A stretch of 64,000 nt of DNA from Acidimicrobiia bacterium (GCA_043720595.1 JAYSSK010000057.1:65381-129380); one strand, 5' to 3'. Shown: positions 35,748-45,959, counted from the first letter of the stretch. Notes: generated by a model from the sequence alone, not told the origin. Translations and numbers: made by a program.

Positions 35748-36491
35748 TCATCGGACGTTCCGTGCGGATACGTTGAGATCCACAGGGCCTTTTACACCGT
35801 CCACCGTGGCGCGGAACGAAACCTGCCAGAGGTCCCATCGGTCTCCGCCCGGACGCCGGAAAAGACGGCGGGTCCAAAGACGTCGGTGCATTGCCTTGCC
35901 GATTCCGTAGTCGGCTTCGGTGTCGTGCAGGACGTACATGATGAGCGGTCGGCCCCAAGCCATCTCGACGATGTCGACGAATGCTTCAACTTCGACTTGA
36001 AGTTCAGCGGGGTTGGGGCGCTTCGAGCAGTTTCCGGCATATTCGATGTCGAGCGCAGGTGGAAGCCAGTCGGGTTGCGGTGGAGCCACCTGCAGGAAGT
36101 GCGTGGCCTGTTCTGCTCCAGAGCGACAGAAGGTGAAGAAGTGATACGCACCAATATCAAAGCCCTCGCCACGTGCAGCTTGGGCGTTGGCTTGAAACAA
36201 CCGGTCTGTGTGATCCCCGCCTTCGGTTGCCTTGATGTAGGCAAAGTCGATGCCATCTGAACGAACCTGCGCCCAGTCGATGCTGCCCTGGTGGTGGGAA
36301 ACATCGATGCCATACCGCTCGCCTGCTTGAAGCGCAGGGCGATAGTTCGGAATCACCAGCCACCACGCTACAGCAGCCAACGCGAAACCCACAGCGCACG
36401 CAATGGCAACAATCCGAACTGCCCGGTTGACGTGTGTCCATCGACCCGAACTCGCCTGTTCTGGCTGAGAATCGGGTAGCGCATTGGTCAT
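35748..36491 (-). CDS. GH25 muramidase (lysozyme) with N-terminal membrane anchor
   Basis: YGIDVSHHQGSIDW...GIDFAYIKATEG..., GAYHF and LPPALDIEY. TM helix IVAIACAVGFALAAVAWWLVI. The ATG overlaps the upstream TGA (ATGA). Confidence 0.9.
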   Translation of the reverse strand: MTNALPDSQPEQASSGRWTHVNRAVRIVAIACAVGFALAAVAWWLVIPNYRPALQAGERYGIDVSHHQGSIDWAQVRSDGIDFAYIKATEGGDHTDRLFQANAQAARGEGFDIGAYHFFTFCRSGAEQATHFLQVAPPQPDWLPPALDIEYAGNCSKRPNPAELQVEVEAFVDIVEMAWGRPLIMYVLHDTEADYGIGKAMHRRLWTRRLFRRPGGDRWDLWQVSFRATVDGVKGPVDLNVSARNVR

Positions 36492-38311
36492 GAGGTCGCT
36501 CCCGCGGCTACTTCTCGGTCACAAACCCGGGTAACCGTTTCGTCGATGCTGACCATCACCTGCGCTCGATGTTGGGTGCTGTGCAGGGCATGGTCCAGGC
36601 CATCGATGATCATCAGCTCGACACCGGCCCGCTGCAGTGCGGCGAGTTGGCGGGGGTCTTCGCGTTGGAGGAACCGGAGGCCGCGGTCGCCGGTACCGAA
36701 CACGAGAACCAACTTGGTGGGGCTGTCTACGAACGCCTCGATCCAATCGAACGCTGGGTGGCGACGCCCTGCCAAACGCTTGAGCGCCTTCGTTGTCCGG
36801 CGCAGACCAATGAAATGGTCAGCACGTGCAATCCAGTAGCGAACATGGTTCGTTGCTTCCTCAATCACACCGGGAGGGGTGCCGATGCGGAACAACTGCG
36901 GGTTAATCACGATTGCTGTGGCGATCTTCTCGTGTGGGCCTGCCTGCAACAGGCTGAACGAACTGGAGCACAGCCCAACTGCAACCACACGGTCGATCCC
37001 GGGCCTCATGGGTTGCTCAACCTCGGGTTCGACTCCGATCCCTCCGCTCACCGCTCGGCCGCGCCCGGGCTTGATGGGTTGCTCAACCTCGGGTTCGACT
37101 CCGATCCCTCCGCTCACCGCTCGGCCGCGCCCGGGCGAGATCAACAGGTCGACCGCCAACGCGATGTCCTCTGGTCCGCGGGTTCCATAAACATCGTTTC
37201 GCCTCTGTGAGGGCCACGTTCCGCTGTCTCCGGTCGATGCGTGTTCGACGCGTGCCACGGTGATGCCCGATGCTGCCCACTTGCGCGCTGCATCGACCCA
37301 GGCGCGCCCGGGTCCCCATGCTCGTTCCACGCCTGAATTGAGCAGGAGAACGCCGCACGACGAAACGTTTTCACCGCGGGCCTGATGAACGGTAGCGGCC
37401 AGTCTTGGGGCTCCGACGGACTCCGAACGTTCGTTGAGAACCGACGTGGTGCACAGACCTACTGCCGAGACACCTCCCGTAGCGGGGACAACCCGCGGCG
37501 AGTCATCTGCCAAGGATGCAGCGACGCGACGAACGTTGTCGACCAGAGCCGCTACGTCGTTCACTGGGGGAACCGCCAGTTCTGCTGATGCATCGAGCCA
37601 CGCACGGGTCTCGACAGATCGAACCGTTTCGATCTTCCACCCGAGTGAAGCGAAGGCGCTCAGGGCTTTGGTCGGTTCGGGGCGCTGTGCATCTTCGATG
37701 ACCAACAGCTGCCGGCCGCGGGCATCGACGGGTTGGAGGGAATGCGCCCCGAGCTCGTTGAGCAAGCCGCTTGGGTGCACGAAGCCGCCGAACGTAACTC
37801 CGTCACCATCGACATGGCCTGGAGCGCTCCCGGCGAGCAGCGTGAGCTCGCGTTTGAACTGCCGGCCTGAAGGTGTGGGCGACCACAGCACCAGCGATGC
37901 GACCTGCGCATCAATATCTGAGCGGTGCATTGCAGCGGAAGCGACAAGTGCACCGAGGCGCGCACCGACCAGGACAACGTTGCGCGTTCCGAGGGCACGG
38001 ATCGTGTCACCTAGTGCCGTGATCCATGAATCCACCCACGGACCTGGGTTTCCGTCGGTGCCGACCGGAATATCGCACGACGAGCCTGTGTTCGGGAGGT
38101 CGAACAGGATCGTCGGAAAGCCCTCTGCGACCAATCGATTTGCTACGACTACCCAGCCTTCGCGCGCGACGAGTTCCACGTACCCAAACCCGGGTACAAC
38201 TACAACGCCGAGGTCGGGGTGCGCAGTGCCTGCTTCAGGTTGCATCATGCGAGCGAAGATCGGCACGTCTCCGTTGATCCATCCGAACGACTCGTTCGGC
38301 CCCCCGCTCAT
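36488..38311 (-). CDS. fused double alpha/beta-hydrolase-fold protein (nucleophile elbows GARLG and GLCSS)
   Basis: There are two hydrolase-like halves: VVVPGFGY...VLVGARLGALVA...LVLWSP and GVLLLNSG...VVAVGLCSSS...LVLVFGTGD. ATG 38311 overlaps the GH2 stop (ATGA). The longer ORF-track start 38656 lies inside the upstream gene. Confidence 0.6.
   Translation of the reverse strand: MSGGPNESFGWINGDVPIFARMMQPEAGTAHPDLGVVVVPGFGYVELVAREGWVVVANRLVAEGFPTILFDLPNTGSSCDIPVGTDGNPGPWVDSWITALGDTIRALGTRNVVLVGARLGALVASAAMHRSDIDAQVASLVLWSPTPSGRQFKRELTLLAGSAPGHVDGDGVTFGGFVHPSGLLNELGAHSLQPVDARGRQLLVIEDAQRPEPTKALSAFASLGWKIETVRSVETRAWLDASAELAVPPVNDVAALVDNVRRVAASLADDSPRVVPATGGVSAVGLCTTSVLNERSESVGAPRLAATVHQARGENVSSCGVLLLNSGVERAWGPGRAWVDAARKWAASGITVARVEHASTGDSGTWPSQRRNDVYGTRGPEDIALAVDLLISPGRGRAVSGGIGVEPEVEQPIKPGRGRAVSGGIGVEPEVEQPMRPGIDRVVAVGLCSSSFSLLQAGPHEKIATAIVINPQLFRIGTPPGVIEEATNHVRYWIARADHFIGLRRTTKALKRLAGRRHPAFDWIEAFVDSPTKLVLVFGTGDRGLRFLQREDPRQLAALQRAGVELMIIDGLDHALHSTQHRAQVMVSIDETVTRVCDREVAAGATS
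36998..37136. repeat. 66-bp in-frame tandem duplication (63 nt identical in both copies)
   Basis: 37008-37070 equals 37074-37136. It encodes GRGRAVSGGIGVEPEVEQP(I/M)(K/R)P twice, just upstream of the second nucleophile elbow. Confidence 0.92.
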
Positions 38312-40929
38312 TGCGTTGATTCCGATGTTGATGGTGACGCTGGCAGTTGCAGCGTCAGCGAAGCGGAAGATGACAACGCTCGAACGACAACTCGCGAGGA
38401 CGGCTGTCGCTTTGATTGCAGTTCGATGACCCGTGTATCGCCCGGCGCGAGATGGAACCACGCGTCGCTGGCGCTCCAGCCTCGTGCCTCGATGCGCACA
38501 CCGAACGCTCCGGCGGGCGCACCAACCTCGACGTAGTGGACGGCAGCAGAATCGCCCGACAGCGCCGAGCCCGAGCACACCGAGGCCGTCAGAGCATCGC
38601 CGCGTCGCGCAGCGTGTGGCCGACCTTTGGGCCATAAGTGTGCATCCGATATCCAAGTTCCGCCCGCAGTGTGCAGCCGTGCCCTGATGGTTTCGATGGT
38701 TGCAGGTCCGAACGCGTAGACGCCCGTGAGATCGCGGAAGTCCTGGAACAGCGATGCGGCCGTTAGCGTTGTTGTGCTGTGCGCAGGCAGCGTGATTGGC
38801 CGACTGGCGCCCAGCACGCGACCAGTCTCAGCCCAGGCGCCGAGGTCTAGCTCGACATTCAGATCCACCGATCGATCGTTGACCAGATGCACGTCGACAC
38901 CGTTCAGCCCTTCATCGGTCAGCCCGACGACGACCGGTTGAGCCCGCCTCGCAAACCCGTACCAAGCGGCCTTTCGTATTCCCGACGCTTCTGTCAGTCC
39001 CCAGCCGGCGCCATCCCACAGGTCTCGCGCTGTCCATACGATGGCACCGCTGCAATTTGATCGGCCTGTCCGCCATTCGGTCAGTGTGGCGTCGATCGCT
39101 TCGGCCGACGTGACTCGGCCCAAATCCAACGCAGCCGCCGGATCGACCCATCGCAACTCGGTCGCAGATACGTTGAAGAGCTGTTGCGTCATCGCATCGC
39201 GGACGTCATCGAAGTCCCAACCTGTACCGCGGTCGCGTGGCACGCGTTGCTTCCATCGGGGATGATGGACCACAGGTCCTTCGTCGCCCATGAGGACATC
39301 GACGGTGTCTGCTGTGGGTACGTTGGCAAACGCGAGGCACTCGGTGGCGAAGCCCACCTCCGAAATGCGCGCATCGAGCATCGGCCGTCTGTATGCACTC
39401 ACCCCGAAGTAGTGCGAGATGCCGCTGCGATGGTGATGCGGCACCTGCTCAGTGCGTGGTGCTGAGGTCGGCGACGAGGTTACGAAAGCAATGTTCGGCG
39501 CTGCTTCACTGCAGAGCTCTGCAAGAAGCGTGCGTCCCAACGTATCGTTCACGGTTTCGGGCGTTGCCCCAGCCATAGCACTCTGTTGCTCGACCTCGCT
39601 GCCGCCGCAGAGAACGGCCACACACGCGTGAACCGAAGCCCTTTTGGCGAGAATCGTCACCTCGGCCTGAATCAGGTCGCGAAGGCCCGGTGCCTCTAAA
39701 GGTACGTCGAGGTTGGCGAACAACAAGTCATGCCACACGAGGATGCCCAGTTCGTCGCATGCATCGAGCAGTTCGACGGGAGGAATGACGGTGGTCCCGG
39801 CGACCCGGATGATGTTCATGCCGCCAGCGACGCAGTTGCGGAGTGCAGAGAACATTGCTTCTCCGGTAACGAACGGATCGGCCGCGCTGAGCGGAATCCA
39901 ATTCACGCCTCTGGCAAAGATGCGGGTCCCATTGATGACGAGCCGGGCGCCTGGCCCTTGGTGGTCAGCATCACCTGTGTGGCTCATTCCAAGAAGTGCG
40001 ATGTCCCGGAACGCTAGACGGGCGAATTGGTGATCGCCCGTTGGCGTTGCAAGGACGACCCGCGAGGTTGCGGGTGTTCCGTGTGTATGGGGCCACCACG
40101 TGCGAACCGACCCGGCCGGGATGTTGGCCACCGCACGGATGGACGTTAGGTCGTCGTCGCTGCGAGCAGCGCCGACTTCAACCGTTGCGTCGATGCTGTG
40201 ACGCAGCGCATCAGTTGCGCTTACACCACCAGAAATATGCACACGTAGGGTATCGGCGAGAGAGTCGGAAGGAGCTTCGTCAGCTAGGTCGACCAGTGCG
40301 CAGATTTCGATGTCGATGCTGCCGTCTGAGTTCGGCGTGATTGTGCGCGATGTTTCGATAGGCCGACGTTGGGCTGCAAGGCGCATCGGGCCGTGCGAAC
40401 CAATAATGGGAAGGGGCGGATTCCAACCGGGCATTCTGCCCAACAACGGTGTGCGAACCAGCCGTAGGCGCTGATCCTTCACCAGCCGAGTGCGCCATCT
40501 CGCCCGATGCGTGCGGTCAACTGCGCGCAATGAATCGAGGTGCGCGTGCAGCGACGGGAACCGCATCCAGATGGTGGAAGTTCCAACCGGGATACGCAGG
40601 GTCACCGGTACGTTGGCAGTCTCGGAAGTAAAGATCGGCGCATCGTCGGCGAAGACCTGCGTGCCGACTGACAGCCCGTCGGTCTGCATCCATTGGGCAC
40701 TGTCGCTCTGGTCCAGCAGGGCCGACCGAAACCACCAATCGAGCGCATCGAGGTCGCAGCGCGGCTGAGACGGATCGAACCAGCCGGCCTCAGTGACGCA
40801 CTTGCCAACGGTAGTGAACTCCGGTGCATCCAGCCACTCGGCTTGGTGACTCTGAACAGCAGACGTGGGGTCCGACACGGCGCTTGGCGCGAATGGCGCC
40901 AGTCGACCGGACAACGTCGAGTGGGTCAC
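38308..40929 (-). CDS. glycoside hydrolase family 2 protein (beta-mannosidase-like), no signal peptide
   Basis: INGTRIFARGVNWIP, NIIRV.G, ILVWHDLLFAN, LCGGSEVEQ (acid/base region) and FATECLAFANVP (nucleophile region). GTG 40929 overlaps the upstream TGA (GTGA). Confidence 0.75.
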   Translation of the reverse strand: MTHSTLSGRLAPFAPSAVSDPTSAVQSHQAEWLDAPEFTTVGKCVTEAGWFDPSQPRCDLDALDWWFRSALLDQSDSAQWMQTDGLSVGTQVFADDAPIFTSETANVPVTLRIPVGTSTIWMRFPSLHAHLDSLRAVDRTHRARWRTRLVKDQRLRLVRTPLLGRMPGWNPPLPIIGSHGPMRLAAQRRPIETSRTITPNSDGSIDIEICALVDLADEAPSDSLADTLRVHISGGVSATDALRHSIDATVEVGAARSDDDLTSIRAVANIPAGSVRTWWPHTHGTPATSRVVLATPTGDHQFARLAFRDIALLGMSHTGDADHQGPGARLVINGTRIFARGVNWIPLSAADPFVTGEAMFSALRNCVAGGMNIIRVAGTTVIPPVELLDACDELGILVWHDLLFANLDVPLEAPGLRDLIQAEVTILAKRASVHACVAVLCGGSEVEQQSAMAGATPETVNDTLGRTLLAELCSEAAPNIAFVTSSPTSAPRTEQVPHHHRSGISHYFGVSAYRRPMLDARISEVGFATECLAFANVPTADTVDVLMGDEGPVVHHPRWKQRVPRDRGTGWDFDDVRDAMTQQLFNVSATELRWVDPAAALDLGRVTSAEAIDATLTEWRTGRSNCSGAIVWTARDLWDGAGWGLTEASGIRKAAWYGFARRAQPVVVGLTDEGLNGVDVHLVNDRSVDLNVELDLGAWAETGRVLGASRPITLPAHSTTTLTAASLFQDFRDLTGVYAFGPATIETIRARLHTAGGTWISDAHLWPKGRPHAARRGDALTASVCSGSALSGDSAAVHYVEVGAPAGAFGVRIEARGWSASDAWFHLAPGDTRVIELQSKRQPSSRVVVRALSSSASLTLQLPASPSTSESTQ

Positions 40930-41903
40930 GGTCGTCCCCCGGACCCCAAGAGCCGGGTTTCCGCTGCATCCATGGCAGTCAACCACGGGCCGACGGCATC
41001 GTCGACTGCTTGGCCGATATCGATGGTGCGGCCGGCGGCGAGACGCGCCAACTTGAACTGGAGGCCCTTGCAGGACTGCGCCGCAGACCGGAACAACGCG
41101 TCCAGGTCAGGCTCGTCAATGGTGGCCATCACATCGGCTCCGAGCTCGCAGGCGGCCCCGAGTTGGCGCACTGTTGCAAACGCGTACGCGTGAAACGACC
41201 GCATATCAGCCAAGAGTTGCGGCGACTCCGTCACCAGTTGAGCGCGGAACCGTGATGCGCTGTCCGCAGCGGGTCGGCGTCGTTGTAGATGGGCGATGGT
41301 GAGTCGGCGAGCTGCGTCGGCTGCCTGCTGGGCCGGCAGTCGCATAACCCGGTCGGCTTTAACGATTTCGACATAAGGCGGTAGGACGTCGCCCGTGAAC
41401 CTCTCGGGCTGGTCTATTCGCAACAGCGGGTCGTAGTCATGTGTCGGAAGCACAAAGTGTCCCTGACCGTGGAAGTACTCAAGCGTTTTTGTCACAGGGT
41501 CGATGCCGGTGACGGCGATGGAACTCTTGACGTGTTCTTTCTGGTAGGCGGTGCCGGCGGTGTCGGCCAGGTAGAACGAATCGACTTCGATGATCACGGA
41601 CCGGCCGGCGGTGAGCTGGTCGACCAGGTGCCGTTCGGTGGGGCGCCACAATGCGAGTTCGCAGACATCGAGGCCGTACGCGTCACGCAGATCTTCCAAC
41701 GAGTATTTGAGAAACGTCCACTGGTCGTCCTCGAACTCGATCTCGAACACAGACCCGAGTGCTAGCGCAGGGTCGAGGCCGAACCCGTTGAGCAACTCAA
41801 TCCATAGGTCGACATAGCAACTCGTCTCAAGCCAAATGCGCGTCTCGCCATGCAACGCATGCCGCTGCTGGCGGAGTGGGTCGAGAATTCGAATCTGGGA
41901 CAT
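40926..41903 (-). CDS. DUF1839-like protein (candidate Cys-dependent transacylase)
   Basis: HALHGETRIWLETSCYVDLWIELLNGFGLDP...EFEDDQWTFLKYSLEDLRDAYGLDV...EVDSFYLADTAGTAY..HVKSSI...YFHGQG matches my memory of the DUF1839 family pattern. Confidence 0.65.
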   Translation of the reverse strand: MSQIRILDPLRQQRHALHGETRIWLETSCYVDLWIELLNGFGLDPALALGSVFEIEFEDDQWTFLKYSLEDLRDAYGLDVCELALWRPTERHLVDQLTAGRSVIIEVDSFYLADTAGTAYQKEHVKSSIAVTGIDPVTKTLEYFHGQGHFVLPTHDYDPLLRIDQPERFTGDVLPPYVEIVKADRVMRLPAQQAADAARRLTIAHLQRRRPAADSASRFRAQLVTESPQLLADMRSFHAYAFATVRQLGAACELGADVMATIDEPDLDALFRSAAQSCKGLQFKLARLAAGRTIDIGQAVDDAVGPWLTAMDAAETRLLGSGGRP

Positions 41904-41932
41904 GACGCGTTTGGCGGCGTGGACGGACCGAG

Positions 41933-42904
41933 TTAGAGACGAAGCAGGTTGCGAGTGGCCTGTGGCCAGGTGGCTGGGTCAAGCCCGTGCTTTGCGAGCA
42001 AGGCCAATGCGACTCGTTCCAGGCCAAACCCTACGCACGCAGTGTTGGCGGGGCCGTCCGCATCGGTGAGGCCGATCGAGAACGGTGTCCCGAAATGGTC
42101 GTGATGTCGATTGATGGAAGCAACGGCGGTGCGGTGCTCGCTGGAGGCAATAGGCACAACCACTTCGTGCTTCAGTTCCTGGCCGCGCTGCTGGGCCTTC
42201 ATCAGGCGGCCTGGCCGTCCGAAGAAAGGGTCGTTAGCCACGACAAGCTCGGCGTCGAGACCCAATTCGCAGAGAAGTGCCACGGCGCGCTCGTGCCAGG
42301 TTGTCGCGTAGGCGTCAACGACCGAGGAGTGCCCGATCATCACGTGTTCGTGTTGCCGAAAGCAGCGCAGCCGCGCCGGATCTGGCGACGGTTCGTGCCG
42401 GTAGCAGTGGCCGATGGTGTGAAACCCACGACCAGACGACGGAACCGACGTGCCCTCGAGCGCGAGGTAGATCGGATAGCACGATGCCGGGAGCAGCGTT
42501 GCGTCTGACATCGAGAACCGATCGCCGTAGTCATGGCCAGCTTCGGCCGCTTCAAGGATCGCCGCCTGGTCACCTTCGGAGCCGGAGAACGCGTGCAACG
42601 AACCAAGCATGTCTGGGAATGAACGTAGGTAGCCAACCCGGTGCACCAATGCCCGCGGGATGACAGGGGGAAAGAACCACGTGGTTTCGTTGAAGTCCGC
42701 AGCGAGGTGGTTGACGGCATCCCCAATAGCTTGCACAACGCCTTCGAAGACGATGTTGCGTCCCATCAGGCCGTCGGCACCAAGCGGAATGAGGAGGCCA
42801 GCATCAACCATACGGTCGCGGAGGTTGATCTGGGCGACGCGCAGGTCTGTGGTGGCTTCGGTTGTCACGTCAGTCATCCTTGGAGACGAGGAGCCAGGCA
42901 GCAT
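41933..42904 (-). CDS. amino acid--[carrier protein] ligase (class II aaRS/SerRS-core homologue without tRNA-binding domain)
   Basis: Motif 2-like GFHTIGHCYRHEPS and motif 3-like CVGFGLERVALALL. Cys/Glu/Cys candidates are present (PASCYP, YRHE, NTACVG). About 320 aa. The alternative ATG 42877 gives an 8-nt overlap (ATGACTGA) with the upstream stop. Confidence 0.8.
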   Translation of the reverse strand: MLPGSSSPRMTDVTTEATTDLRVAQINLRDRMVDAGLLIPLGADGLMGRNIVFEGVVQAIGDAVNHLAADFNETTWFFPPVIPRALVHRVGYLRSFPDMLGSLHAFSGSEGDQAAILEAAEAGHDYGDRFSMSDATLLPASCYPIYLALEGTSVPSSGRGFHTIGHCYRHEPSPDPARLRCFRQHEHVMIGHSSVVDAYATTWHERAVALLCELGLDAELVVANDPFFGRPGRLMKAQQRGQELKHEVVVPIASSEHRTAVASINRHHDHFGTPFSIGLTDADGPANTACVGFGLERVALALLAKHGLDPATWPQATRNLLRL

Positions 42905-44045
42905 TGGCCCCGGTGAGACGGTGATTGTTGATCATGACTCTGGCCCCGTGAGCGTCGCGCAGCAAGCGCCCGAGCGAAAACGGTCCTGACGCCTGATACG
43001 CAGGCATGCCGCATGCCTCGATTGCGTCGGTGACGATTTCGACGACGGCTTTCGACCCGGCGAGTTTCAGCCCGTTCATGCGAATGGAGAACGGGAGGCT
43101 GTCGACGACCAGCCCGGGTGCGTCGGGGTTTGCCTGCCACACCTCGATGGCCTGCTGGTAATCCGTTGCTGCGTGGTAGACGAGCGAGCGAAGTTCTTGC
43201 AGCCGGTTCACCAGGTCGACGACTGCCGGAGCAGCCGCTGGCACCGCGCCCGGCGTGGATCTTGCCTGCTTGCGCAGCAGCACTCGTGCCCTGCTGACAG
43301 CCTCGGTCGCCATCCCAACCCATAAGTGGCCCCACAGGACGTGCGAGACGGGGAGCATCGTGCGGCGGGAGATATCGGCGAACGGGTCAGGGAAGATTGC
43401 CCCGATTGGCCCTTCTGACTGGATGAGGTACCCGCCAGATTCGGTGCCGCGGAACCCGATCGTGTCCCACACCTGACGACGTTCCAGACGGTAAGAATCT
43501 GCGGTGATGCAAGCCAAAACCTGATCGGTGGGCGGTGCGTCTGGCCCGCTGCGCGCGGTGATCAGGATCGCGTCGGCGAGACGGGCGTAGCTGATGATCG
43601 ACGCTTCCTTTTCGAGGGAAAAGGTGTCGCCATGCGGTTCGATGGAACACGCGCTGGTGCGAACAGCACCACTGACAACTTTTTCCGTCGTTGCAGACGC
43701 CAGTAGTAGCTGCTCGGTTGCGGTTCGTCGAAGGAGCGACTCGATTTCAGGTGTGCGCCGATGCCACAGTAGGCACCCAACCTGGATCTGATGCATGGCA
43801 AAGACCATCGAAGCCGATGCGCAGGACCGCGCAAGTTCTTCAACGACTCGGCAGGTTTCGGAAAGGGTCAGCCCCAGGCCACCCAGCGATTCCGGTATAA
43901 GCGCGCCGAGCAACCGGCCCTCGCGAAGCGCCTCAATGGTTTCGTGCGGCAGCCTCGCTTCGTGGTCAACCGCCTCGGCATGTTGAGCGGCGATCGCACG
44001 GCATGCAGCGATGGCCTCGGCAATCGGACCTGCAGGTTGCGGCAT
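42870..44045 (-). CDS. acyl-CoA dehydrogenase-fold flavoprotein
   Basis: N-terminal LPHETIEALREGRLLGALIPESLGGLG, a middle beta domain and a C-terminal ..LGRLLRDAHG.. helix bundle. Confidence 0.88.
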   Translation of the reverse strand: MPQPAGPIAEAIAACRAIAAQHAEAVDHEARLPHETIEALREGRLLGALIPESLGGLGLTLSETCRVVEELARSCASASMVFAMHQIQVGCLLWHRRTPEIESLLRRTATEQLLLASATTEKVVSGAVRTSACSIEPHGDTFSLEKEASIISYARLADAILITARSGPDAPPTDQVLACITADSYRLERRQVWDTIGFRGTESGGYLIQSEGPIGAIFPDPFADISRRTMLPVSHVLWGHLWVGMATEAVSRARVLLRKQARSTPGAVPAAAPAVVDLVNRLQELRSLVYHAATDYQQAIEVWQANPDAPGLVVDSLPFSIRMNGLKLAGSKAVVEIVTDAIEACGMPAYQASGPFSLGRLLRDAHGARVMINNHRLTGANAAWLLVSKDD

Positions 44046-44059
44046 GATGAGCGCAGCAG

Positions 44060-44317
44060 TTAGGGCTGCAGCACCGCGACAGCGTCCGCGATGGCTGCGA
44101 CAGACTCGAAAGTGGAGCGAACCAGGAGACGTTCAGGAAGCTCGATCTCGAATGCATCTTCGATGGCCAGCATCAGCTGCACAGTGGCCAACGAGGACAG
44201 GCCGTGTGCGTACAGGTCGTCGGTATCTGACAGCTTGGAGATATCGGTGCTGAGGTTTCCGTGCTCGGAAACCAGATCGCGAATGGTGGTGATTGGTGTA
44301 GTCATGGGCTCGTTCAT
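44060..44317 (-). CDS. acyl/aminoacyl carrier protein
   Basis: 85 aa. The phosphopantetheine site context is DLYAHGLSSLATVQLMLAIEDAFEIELP. An alternative ATG is at 44305. Confidence 0.85.
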   Translation of the reverse strand: MNEPMTTPITTIRDLVSEHGNLSTDISKLSDTDDLYAHGLSSLATVQLMLAIEDAFEIELPERLLVRSTFESVAAIADAVAVLQP

Positions 44318-44517
44318 GGCCTGCCTGCAGCCTCTCAAAGAAGATCGACGATCGTACCGCCCCTTCGGTTCCGTTCGAGTACGGACGAAGCTCGCTCCCA
44401 TCTTCGTCGGCGGGAACGGGTCGGGACTTGAGGGTGGGCAACAGTCCAGCAATCCACACACTGGTAAGTCTGGGAGGACGATGTTTCGCACAAGAACCAG
44501 CGGTACGGTTCAAACGT

Positions 44518-45171
44518 ATGCATCTCGAACGTGTGATCAAGGCTCGACGCATGTGCAGGTCGTTCACGACCGAGCCGTTGATCGAAGGGCAGCTGGATCG
44601 GTTCCTGGACATGGCCCGGCGGGTGCCGTCAGCAGGCTTCACCCAAGGGTTCCACTTTTTGGTCCTGGAAGGTGAGGCCCAAACCCAGCGATTCTGGGAC
44701 GTCACGCTGCCCGCGATTGAGCGTGCGACCTTTCCTTACCCAGGGCTGCTGAATGCTCCCGTGTTGGTGCTTCCTCTTGCAGACAGTGCGGCGTACATCG
44801 ACCGGTATTCCGAGCCAGATAAGGCTCGCACTGGTTTGGGTGAAGGTGTCGAGAAGTGGCCGGTCCCGTTCTGGTGGAGCGACACCGCGATGGCAGTTCA
44901 GAACCTGTTGTTGGCATGCACCGACGCCGGCCTGGGTGCGCTGTACTTCGGGATCTTCCGCAACGAAGCCCGGCTGATGGCCGACCTTGGGGTCCCAGAA
45001 GGGATCCGTCCGCTCGGAGCGGTCGCTATCGGGCACCCAGCCGAAGGGGCGCTCGACTCGACCGTCGGCTCACCTGGACGGCGGCCGCGCCGCTCGTTGG
45101 CAGACATGGTCCACCGCAACGGATGGGACCCCGCGCTACGTCAGCGAAACGCTGCCCAAACCCCGGCGTGA
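44518..45171 (+). CDS. nitroreductase family protein
   Basis: MHLERVIKARRMCRSFTTEPL...ARRVPSAGFTQG. Confidence 0.85.
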   Translation: MHLERVIKARRMCRSFTTEPLIEGQLDRFLDMARRVPSAGFTQGFHFLVLEGEAQTQRFWDVTLPAIERATFPYPGLLNAPVLVLPLADSAAYIDRYSEPDKARTGLGEGVEKWPVPFWWSDTAMAVQNLLLACTDAGLGALYFGIFRNEARLMADLGVPEGIRPLGAVAIGHPAEGALDSTVGSPGRRPRRSLADMVHRNGWDPALRQRNAAQTPA

Positions 45172-45959
45172 TCCGACGGCATCACACCATCGACTGGTTC
45201 GGTGCCGATGAGCCGAGTCTTCACAGGAGTACCTTGCCCGGATCGGCGGGGCCACGACGTGAGGATGTAATCCAGTCGACGGTTCGGCCACAGAGCTTCG
45301 GTGAGCAGCGGGTTATCGGCGCGCCAGGTCCATCCCGGATCACCGGTTGGGGTCCCGGCGATGTCCCATGCATCGGTGAGCACCATGCCAGGGCAGTACG
45401 GCGGCCGGCGGCCGCTGAGGGCGCGGATCTCGTCGCTGTCGGGAACGGCGTTGAGATCTCCTGCCAGAACGATTGGAAAATCCGTGTCTGAGTTTCGATC
45501 GATACGGCTCATCAGCGCGCAGATCATTTTCAGTTGTTTCTCGCGAAGCTCGGAATTGTCGAAGCGCTGATCGAGGTGCGTCGAAAACACGTGGATGGCG
45601 CCGCGGGGAGAATCGATTTCCGCATGGATGACATGGCGATGCGATGGCCGTGCATCGGTGCCGGGAAGCGCATGGCTCTCAGACCGGATGATGGGCCACT
45701 TGCTCAGCACAGCGTTGGCGAAGGACAGCCCGTCTCGCTGAGCCGTATCATGGCGTGCAACGTGCATGCCAAGGCGTTCGCCAAGCCACGCAGCTTGATC
45801 ACGCTGGTCTTGTTTCGCCCACACCTCTTGTAGACACACAATGTCGGCGTTGGCTTCGGCCAGCACTGCCGCAATGGGCTCTTGCCGTGTGCGGTAGTCC
45901 CCGAAACGCCACCACAGGTTCCACGTGAGAACGGTAACCTCTGGTACGGGCGGGACCAT
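45141..45959 (-). CDS. endonuclease/exonuclease/phosphatase (EEP) family protein
   Basis: VLTWNLW, DIVCLQEV, GDLN and SDHAGV. Confidence 0.9.
   Translation of the reverse strand: MVPPVPEVTVLTWNLWWRFGDYRTRQEPIAAVLAEANADIVCLQEVWAKQDQRDQAAWLGERLGMHVARHDTAQRDGLSFANAVLSKWPIIRSESHALPGTDARPSHRHVIHAEIDSPRGAIHVFSTHLDQRFDNSELREKQLKMICALMSRIDRNSDTDFPIVLAGDLNAVPDSDEIRALSGRRPPYCPGMVLTDAWDIAGTPTGDPGWTWRADNPLLTEALWPNRRLDYILTSWPRRSGQGTPVKTRLIGTEPVDGVMPSDHAGVWAAFR

Follow-up and report, generated by a model that had tools for sequence, protein, structure and literature searches.

Amino acid:carrier-protein ligases, exemplified by Bradyrhizobium Bll0957 and Agrobacterium Atu2573, were reportedly described by Mocibob et al. 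in 2010. Both homologues aminoacylate a carrier protein, which they load with Gly or Ala, and the biological role of these ligases was called unknown in a 2022 review (PMC9437257). In a note added in proof, Aravind, de Souza and Iyer (2010; PMC2922099) reported that a paralogue of seryl-tRNA synthetase (SerRS) is linked to an acyl carrier protein (ACP), a redox enzyme, Atu2574, a glycosidase and liposaccharide genes. The same authors predicted that an amino acid is ligated to the amino group of a cell-surface sugar, with Atu2574 as the amide-forming enzyme and the redox enzyme as a modifier of the aminoacyl group (PMC2922099). Atu2574 belongs to DUF1839, and the set of GH2, DUF1839, amino acid-ACP ligase, acyl-CoA dehydrogenase (ACAD) and ACP genes was listed as a consistent proteobacterial neighbourhood in the supplement of Ozhelvaci and Steczkiewicz (2023; PMC10318531). 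Here, a gene cassette of this kind was investigated in a 64,000-nt stretch of DNA from an Acidimicrobiia bacterium, which is referred to as the window. The cassette lies at 36488-44317 and is followed by a gene for a GH25 muramidase, which extends the block down to 35748, all on the minus strand. It is a new actinobacterial representative of a known and widespread kind, and there is hardly any doubt that it is an orthologue of the described amino acid:carrier-protein ligase/DUF1839 cassette.

With the neighbourhoods of Bll0957 and of Atu2573-Atu2574 the window shares the same five genes in the order ACP, redox enzyme, ligase, DUF1839 and GH2. The original prediction, made from the sequence of the window alone, had held that no system with this composition had been described; this claim was found to be wrong, because the core had been reported in 2010 (PMC2922099) and again in 2023 (PMC10318531). 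The earlier descriptions were proteobacterial, whereas the window copy most probably derives from Acidimicrobiales and carries a non-conserved GH25 gene and an in-frame repeat insertion. A fused double alpha/beta-hydrolase, encoded by the sixth gene, is not mentioned in the neighbourhood accounts of PMC2922099 and PMC10318531.

For the comparison of related loci, an alignment of DUF1839 was scanned against 185,579 species-level genomes, of which at least 583 encode DUF1839. The best 80 of these at least 583 served as comparative loci, and co-occurrence was counted in the 55 loci with enough flanking sequence, which span at least eight phyla. The 80 loci derive from Acidimicrobiia, Solirubrobacterales and other Actinomycetota, from Planctomycetota, Verrucomicrobiota, Acidobacteriota and Gemmatimonadota, and from Alpha-, Beta- and Gammaproteobacteria, Abditibacteria and others. 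When the window proteins were searched against all open reading frames (ORFs) of the 80 loci, the order carrier protein, ACAD-fold flavoprotein, ligase, DUF1839, GH2 and double hydrolase was recurrent. The carrier protein and the flavoprotein were found in all 55 loci, the ligase in 52, the GH2 enzyme in 50, the double hydrolase in 44 and the GH25 muramidase in none. The first six genes were tightly packed in most of the 80 loci, far above chance, and every junction in the related loci had an extrapolated intergenic distance that was negative or amounted to a few tens of bases. The conserved unit consists of six genes, not of five or seven. The original prediction had tied the ligase cassette to GH2, double-hydrolase and GH25 genes alike; the link to the first two is conserved across phyla and the adjacency of the six genes stood in the survey, but GH25 co-occurred in none of the 80 loci.

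Among the best 80 loci the closest relative of the window was L002, from an Acidimicrobiales metagenome-assembled genome (MAG), with a DUF1839 identity of 79%, which makes this order the most likely origin of the window. The six cassette genes are annotated alike by PGAP in plasmid p2 of Azospirillum brasilense Sp7 (AMK58_RS22570-22595). Plasmid or chromid records with DUF1839 numbered 65, and conjugative plasmids as well as records with two copies were among them. They belonged to plant- and fungus-associated genera, namely Rhizobium (18), Azospirillum (11), Burkholderia (10), Mycetohabitans (9), Caballeronia (7) and Cupriavidus (4). On one of these replicons, the conjugative plasmid p4 of Rhizobium binae (L084; NZ_CP071608.1, 276215-279543), only the ACP, ACAD, ligase and DUF1839 genes were annotated, and the genes after them were hypothetical, zincin-like and of a group II intron. 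Either this copy is truncated, or its GH2 and hydrolase genes are pseudogenes which are unlisted by PLSDB.

The original assignments of the ligase, the carrier protein and the DUF1839 protein held in profile searches. The carrier protein (85 aa; 44060-44317, minus strand) passed the NCBIfam model PRK07081 with 102.7 bits (cutoff 72), matched PP-binding with E 7e-9 and was weakly similar to DltC. Its residue S42 is conserved in 99% of 72 homologues, and Ser42 is probably the phosphopantetheine attachment site. An AcpS-type phosphopantetheinyl transferase (PPTase) adjoins the carrier protein in 25 of the 80 loci; in the window, neither PPTase nor exopolysaccharide (EPS) genes were found using seeds from other loci. 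The amino acid:carrier-protein ligase (41933-42877, minus strand), to which the carrier protein encoded two genes upstream is dedicated, has 314 aa from its conserved start. It was matched by PRK07080, the model of amino acid--[ACP] ligases, over 312 of 318 model positions with E 9e-101 and 337 bits, below the curated cutoff of 357; this shortfall is a near miss of a distant actinobacterial member. The crystal structures of Bll0957 (4h2w/3mey) were matched with E 2e-61 over residues 32-322, at 45% identity. The zinc ligands C142, E171 and C290 are 100% conserved in 73 homologues and correspond in the alignment to the Cys/Glu/Cys ligands of Bll0957 (131/176/279). Since the ligase (314-323 aa) matched only the catalytic core of SerRS (approximately 312-503 of 518-aa SerRS models and 313-504 of SerRS structures), it is a paralogue of the class II catalytic core of methanogen-type SerRS without the N-terminal tRNA-binding domain. 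In an alignment of the 73 homologues the conserved Met corresponded to residue 10 (M10) of the window ligase, at 42877, and this start is preferred to that at 42904 because M10 is conserved. A third possibility, a GTG at 42868, is given as the start in one public gene call.

The DUF1839 protein (325 aa; 40926-41903, minus strand) matched its Pfam model with E 2.6e-85, and throughout the comparative set the carrier protein and the ligase are encoded in the same operon as DUF1839 (52-55 of 55 loci). DUF1839 was classed as papain-like, with a triad described as a permuted C(T/S)H arrangement (PMC10318531). Residues C29, H124, D135 and H145 are invariant in the family, and the Pfam model BtrH_N was matched by 6 of 24 family members. 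The AlphaFold model, with a predicted local distance difference test (pLDDT) score of 89, showed strands and helices up to residue 182, followed by six helices over 191-319. In a Foldseek search the best match of this model was CtaG (E 1.8e-8, template-modelling scores 0.59/0.62), and that CtaG is the closest solved fold of DUF1839 is new here. In the papain-like ligase CtaG, an N-terminal catalytic domain is joined to a helical domain at the C-terminus, and the enzyme uses Cys-acyl ping-pong chemistry on a carrier-bound acyl group (PMC12865890). Its fold-mates BtrH and AsbE combine carrier-bound donors with free acceptors, BtrH in the biosynthesis of the aminoglycoside butirosin (PMC12865890). 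From the modelled fold, DUF1839 is predicted to be a carrier-protein-dependent papain-like transacylase of the CtaG/BtrH/AsbE type. It shares with these enzymes of closthioamide, butirosin and petrobactin biosynthesis the bipartite fold and a place beside a carrier protein and a loading enzyme, but differs in that its donor is loaded by an aaRS-type (aminoacyl-tRNA synthetase) ligase and not by an ANL or ATP-grasp enzyme.

The flavoprotein (391 aa; 42870-44045, minus strand) carries both ACAD Pfam domains, Acyl-CoA_dh_N and Acyl-CoA_dh_1, so that the fold and the FAD-family domains are present. The canonical ACAD base is missing: the Glu of the 'YEG' motif, at the position of E376 in medium-chain acyl-CoA dehydrogenase, aligns with I372, and this residue is V or I in 71 of 71 homologues. 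Relatives in the PDB included KijD3, DnmZ, ORF36 and DszC as well as true ACADs. An assignment of the flavoprotein as an N-oxygenase was considered and rejected; the amino-sugar N-oxygenase KijD3 ranked first in the single-sequence search, but the family profile slightly favoured short-chain ACADs. The flavoprotein is predicted to modify the carrier-tethered aminoacyl group.

The GH2 protein (873 aa; 38308-40929, minus strand) was not matched by any of the Pfam GH2 domain models, so that the original GH2 assignment could be retained only by way of beta-mannosidase structures. As a single sequence the protein matched beta-mannosidases of the PDB with E 7e-25 (phmmer), and a family profile of 17 sequences matched 5n6u with E 1e-104 and BtMan2A with 3e-89, and 6byc over profile positions 44-824. 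In the profile the motif CGnSE was paired with CGNNE (acid/base) and FasEcLgF with FMSEFGF (nucleophile) of BtMan2A. The catalytic residues Glu445 (acid/base, CGGSE) and Glu530 (nucleophile) are conserved in 97% and 100% of 63 sequences, respectively, and in 90% of these the Asn in front of the acid/base Glu is replaced by Ser (S444; NE to SE). By these alignments the protein is a genuine GH2 enzyme of the beta-mannosidase clade which has kept both catalytic glutamates. Its full-length architecture and aligned glutamates are shared with the BtMan2A and 5n6u beta-mannosidases, but the cassette enzyme is cytoplasmic, is always coupled to DUF1839, has the SE motif and is missed by Pfam.

The double hydrolase (607 aa; 36488-38311, minus strand) showed weak matches to TIGR03101 in its N-half and to TIGR03100 in its C-half. 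The exosortase-associated hydrolase 1 and 2 models named in the original prediction thus did match, but with 42.8 bits (cutoff 168) for TIGR03100 and 41.5 bits (cutoff 203) for TIGR03101 the scores were below the curated cutoffs. Two alpha/beta-hydrolase domains could be observed in the AlphaFold model (pLDDT 80). The N-half has a nucleophile elbow G-x-R-x-G with Arg in 40 of 52 sequences and Gly in 11 of 52, and because the nucleophile position is occupied by Arg or Gly, this half is regarded as dead. The elbow of the C-half reads G-L-C-S-G, and Cys448 and His574 are invariant. By its sequence the protein is a fusion of a hydr2_PEP-like N-half with a hydr1_PEP-like C-half, related to the TIGR families and not a member of them. 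Sequence searches of the PDB with this protein yielded nothing, and the fold search returned generic esterases and lipases only, with no specific functional analogue. Within the gene, an in-frame tandem repeat of 66 nt in 2.1 copies was detected with TRF at 36998-37136 (minus strand; residues approximately 392-437). It encodes PGRGRAVSGGIGVEPEVEQP twice and is absent from homologues. Residues 395-432 had a pLDDT below 50, and the repeat insertion is predicted from the model to be a disordered loop. The duplicated in-frame 22-aa unit was also found in an unrelated CobW-family GTPase (P0132), which suggests that a small repeat moves in frame within this lineage.

Several of the related loci lie among polysaccharide genes. 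The clearest case is L047, in a betaproteobacterial MAG (JANOQY010000366.1, 884-17449), where the cassette is placed inside an XrtA/PEP-CTERM exopolysaccharide locus whose marker families TIGR03015, TIGR03016, TIGR03018 and TIGR03007 all scored above cutoff. The double-hydrolase orthologue of this locus reached 148 bits with TIGR03100 (cutoff 168) and 103 bits with TIGR03101 (cutoff 203), both below cutoff. The aaRS-like ligase is absent from L047 and a ligase_PEP_1-like AMP-binding enzyme is encoded upstream, which looks like a non-orthologous displacement of the loading enzyme. Genes for an Asn-synthase-type amidotransferase, an NAD-synthase-like protein and a GNAT protein were also observed upstream, and the cassette is directly followed by XrtA/PEP-CTERM EPS genes for an ATPase, an outer-membrane protein, a tyrosine kinase and a chain-length determinant. 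L047 lies fully and L064 partly in an XrtA locus; the window does not. In three Acidimicrobiales MAGs (L041, 1327-12232; L045; L078) only the carrier protein, ACAD, ligase and DUF1839 genes were found, with no GH2 or double-hydrolase gene. This four-gene core is set among genes for GT4 glycosyltransferases, Bac_transf (polyprenyl-phosphate sugar transferase), a low-molecular-weight phosphotyrosine phosphatase and an epimerase, and by its gene content this surrounding is a capsule/EPS-type locus. A common logic of carrier protein, adenylating ligase and alpha/beta-hydrolase pair can be recognised in the ACP/ligase_PEP_1/hydrolase 1/hydrolase 2 module of XrtA/PEP-CTERM loci (TIGR03098, TIGR03100, TIGR03101). 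In the TIGRFAM descriptions that module is reported to contain a PLP (pyridoxal phosphate) decarboxylase, and it is not known to include DUF1839, ACAD or GH2. The cassette differs from it in that the hydrolases are fused and score below the cutoffs, and the window genome shows no XrtA context.

A sequence of reactions may be proposed for the six conserved proteins. None of these contains a transmembrane (TM) segment, and the chemistry of the cassette would therefore be cytoplasmic. The holo-carrier would be aminoacylated by the Zn-dependent SerRS-derived ligase, probably with a small amino acid, a step which was shown for Bll0957 and Atu2573 and is presumed for the window. The flavoprotein lacking the ACAD Glu might then oxidise or oxygenate the tethered aminoacyl group. 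As fold and context suggest, DUF1839 would accept the acyl group on Cys29 and transfer it further; the attacking nucleophile would most likely be the amine or hydroxyl group of an acceptor that contains a sugar. Since the chemistry would be cytoplasmic, the acceptor is presumably a nucleotide- or lipid-linked precursor or a small glycoside. The GH2 enzyme could cleave or remodel a beta-glycosidic bond of the acceptor or product, and its SE motif may accommodate an altered C2 substituent. Finally, the Cys-His C-half of the double hydrolase might act through a thioester intermediate in a second acyl-transfer or release step. The end product would most likely be a polysaccharide precursor or glycoconjugate with a decoration derived from the aminoacyl group. 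Aminoacyl transfer to a glycan had also been put forward in the original prediction; of this, the part best supported is that an aminoacyl group, possibly oxidised, leaves the carrier for a glycan-type acceptor, but the cell-wall target deduced from the muramidase falls. As in Dlt (DltA/DltC) and AlmEFG, activation of an amino acid would be followed by its loading onto a small dedicated carrier protein and by transfer to a glycoconjugate. In the Dlt and Alm systems the ligases are of the ANL type, the transferases (DltB/DltD, AlmG) are membrane-bound and the acceptors are teichoic acid or lipid A, whereas the cassette ligase is aaRS-derived and all its partners are soluble.

We give this mechanism of glycan decoration an even chance of being correct. 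It is supported by the independent prediction of sugar aminoacylation from 2010, by the conservation of the six packed genes across phyla, by the EPS-embedded loci, by the conserved catalytic residues, by the CtaG-like fold of DUF1839, by the homology of the double hydrolase to the XrtA-associated pair and by the presence of AcpS in 25 of 80 loci. A narrower version is offered tentatively, as somewhat less probable than its opposite: an oxidised amino acid would be fed to the CtaG-like transacylase, which would N- or O-acylate a beta-mannoside-type sugar in the precursor of an exopolysaccharide or glycoconjugate, and the hydr1/hydr2-type pair and the SE-motif GH2 would complete the pathway. 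A number of observations weigh against glycan decoration. Biochemical proof is limited to the loading of the carrier by the ligase in homologues. The family profile of the flavoprotein ranked true short-chain ACADs slightly above KijD3, DnmZ, ORF36 and DszC, and the likeness of DUF1839 to CtaG is structural only, with 10-12% identity and a TM-score of about 0.6 (10-16% identity to the CtaG/BtrH/AsbE ligases as a group); the DUF1839 family profile found no sequence-level match in the PDB even at E<=10, and the fold search alone succeeded. Polysaccharide-type neighbours were present in 21 of the 80 loci, a raw count without a background rate which is suggestive only, and the window itself has none. 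A hydrolase within a biosynthetic pathway calls for a special explanation. No transporter or membrane transferase is conserved with the six soluble proteins, which would fit a small-molecule product equally well. Such a product is at the centre of the main rival explanation, which is considered rather unlikely: a diffusible or intracellular specialised metabolite (an N-acyl amino-sugar, or an aminoglycoside-like or siderophore-like compound) would be made in place of a surface-glycan decoration. In that case DUF1839 would use a free small molecule as its acceptor, as BtrH and AsbE do, and deprotection, activation or self-resistance would fall to the GH2 enzyme and the hydrolase. Every fold-mate of DUF1839 that has been characterised (CtaG, BtrH, AsbE and MllDE) belongs to a secondary-metabolite pathway, the six proteins are all soluble, and the cassette is compact, self-contained and patchy in its distribution, with some of its 65 plasmid records being conjugative. 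Moreover, 59 of the 80 loci have no polysaccharide neighbour, and S-adenosylmethionine-dependent methyltransferases (12 loci) and ANL ligases or a non-ribosomal peptide synthetase (5 loci) are occasional neighbours. A conserved exporter, regulator or further tailoring set is, however, missing, and the presence of the cassette in environmental phyla is very wide and vertically consistent; the kinship of the double hydrolase with XrtA-EPS families and the embedding of the cassette in EPS loci of several lineages likewise speak against this rival.

It is improbable that the cassette is catabolic, or serves salvage or detoxification. In such a pathway an acylated or aminoacylated glycoside would be imported and taken apart by the GH2 enzyme, the papain-like protein and the hydrolase, and the amino acid set free would be processed by carrier, ligase and flavoprotein. 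Three of the six proteins do belong to hydrolase superfamilies, the hydrolytic machinery of the GH2 enzyme is intact, and the neighbours in the window are housekeeping or metabolic genes. The ATP-dependent loading of a dedicated phosphopantetheinyl carrier, frequently accompanied by an AcpS, is nevertheless a typical trait of biosynthetic pathways, neither transporter nor sugar-utilisation genes are conserved with the cassette, and the fold-mates of DUF1839 are ligases and transacylases, not peptidases. Still less probable is a unit of seven genes with a functional role for the GH25 muramidase, in which the aminoacyl group would be transferred to, or trimmed from, peptidoglycan or the cell wall. 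The muramidase (247 aa; 35748-36491, minus strand) is itself solidly assigned (Glyco_hydro_25, E 2e-33) and, with an N-terminal TM helix at residues approximately 23-45, is the only TM protein of the seven and would be membrane-anchored and extracytoplasmic. Its gene is on the same strand as the double-hydrolase gene and is joined to it by an ATGA overlap, with no terminator between them, and this overlap suggests co-transcription with the cassette. No GH25 homologue was found in the 80 related loci, even at E<=10. In L002, which is syntenic on both sides, the slot is occupied by an unrelated 179-aa ORF (L002:15443-15982), and no GH25 remnant could be detected there by tblastn. In L082 (L082:10659-11810) the double-hydrolase gene is directly followed by an inverted FKBP gene. 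The GC content at third codon positions of the GH25 gene is 0.62, compared with 0.67-0.73 for the cassette genes, and the six core proteins are cytoplasmic by prediction. The downstream end of the cassette is thus a rearrangement hot spot among close relatives, and because GH25 is absent from the 80 loci and from both closest syntenic relatives, L002 and L082, it is regarded as a local addition, a lineage-specific passenger outside the conserved system. The involvement of GH25 claimed by the original prediction is largely refuted by comparative genomics.

With respect to the layout of the block, coordinates and sequence agreed with what had been claimed: the seven minus-strand ORFs were confirmed in position, order and junctions. 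The carrier protein and ACAD genes are separated by a 14-nt gap, and the ACAD and ligase genes overlap by 8 nt, ATGACTGA, with the ligase start at 42877, or by 35 nt with the start at 42904. A 29-nt gap lies between the ligase and DUF1839 genes, which is followed by a GTGA overlap of the DUF1839 and GH2 genes and by an ATGA overlap of the GH2 and double-hydrolase genes. No convincing terminator was found within the seven-gene block, and terminator-like sites were fewer than in shuffled sequence. The 200-bp stretch 44318-44517, which separates the cassette from a nitroreductase-family gene in divergent orientation, contained no sigma-70-like site; the sole such site lay elsewhere, and the promoter and terminator scans were uninformative. 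No Rfam family, such as a riboswitch or a structured leader upstream of the carrier protein gene, was found in 44318-44517, and the fold energy of this region was no better than that of shuffles (z = 0.28).

The divergent nitroreductase-family gene (44518-45171, plus strand) showed weak similarity to BluB and to the C-terminal part of FbiB, and is followed by a gene of the endonuclease/exonuclease/phosphatase family (45141-45959, minus strand). This flank arrangement is kept in the three closest relatives only, and the nitroreductase link was found in 1 of 55 loci. The nitroreductase-type protein could be a flavin reductase that serves a two-component flavoenzyme, but its association with the cassette lacks conservation. 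At 44806-44845 (plus strand), inside the nitroreductase coding region, a tick-borne flavivirus stem-loop of Rfam was weakly matched (25.3 bits, gathering score 38.3), almost certainly by chance.

The comparative work around the window sharpens the question of what the tRNA-independent SerRS homologues do. DUF1839 gains a concrete mechanism from its modelled fold, namely that of a CtaG-like Cys-acyl ping-pong transacylase. In addition, the Cys-His alpha/beta-hydrolase was identified as a candidate for a second acyl-handling step, and a link of the cassette to EPS loci was found, the XrtA-associated hydrolase pair included. As tractable hosts of the cassette, Azospirillum brasilense Sp7 and Agrobacterium tumefaciens C58 are better suited than the window organism. 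If glycan decoration is correct, the cassette would represent a new route of amino-acid-derived glycan modification in soil and water bacteria of many phyla. The narrower version, if true, would also give the amino acid:carrier-protein ligases a biological role, and would link their mechanism to that of the so far unexplained ACP/ligase/hydrolase module found in XrtA loci.

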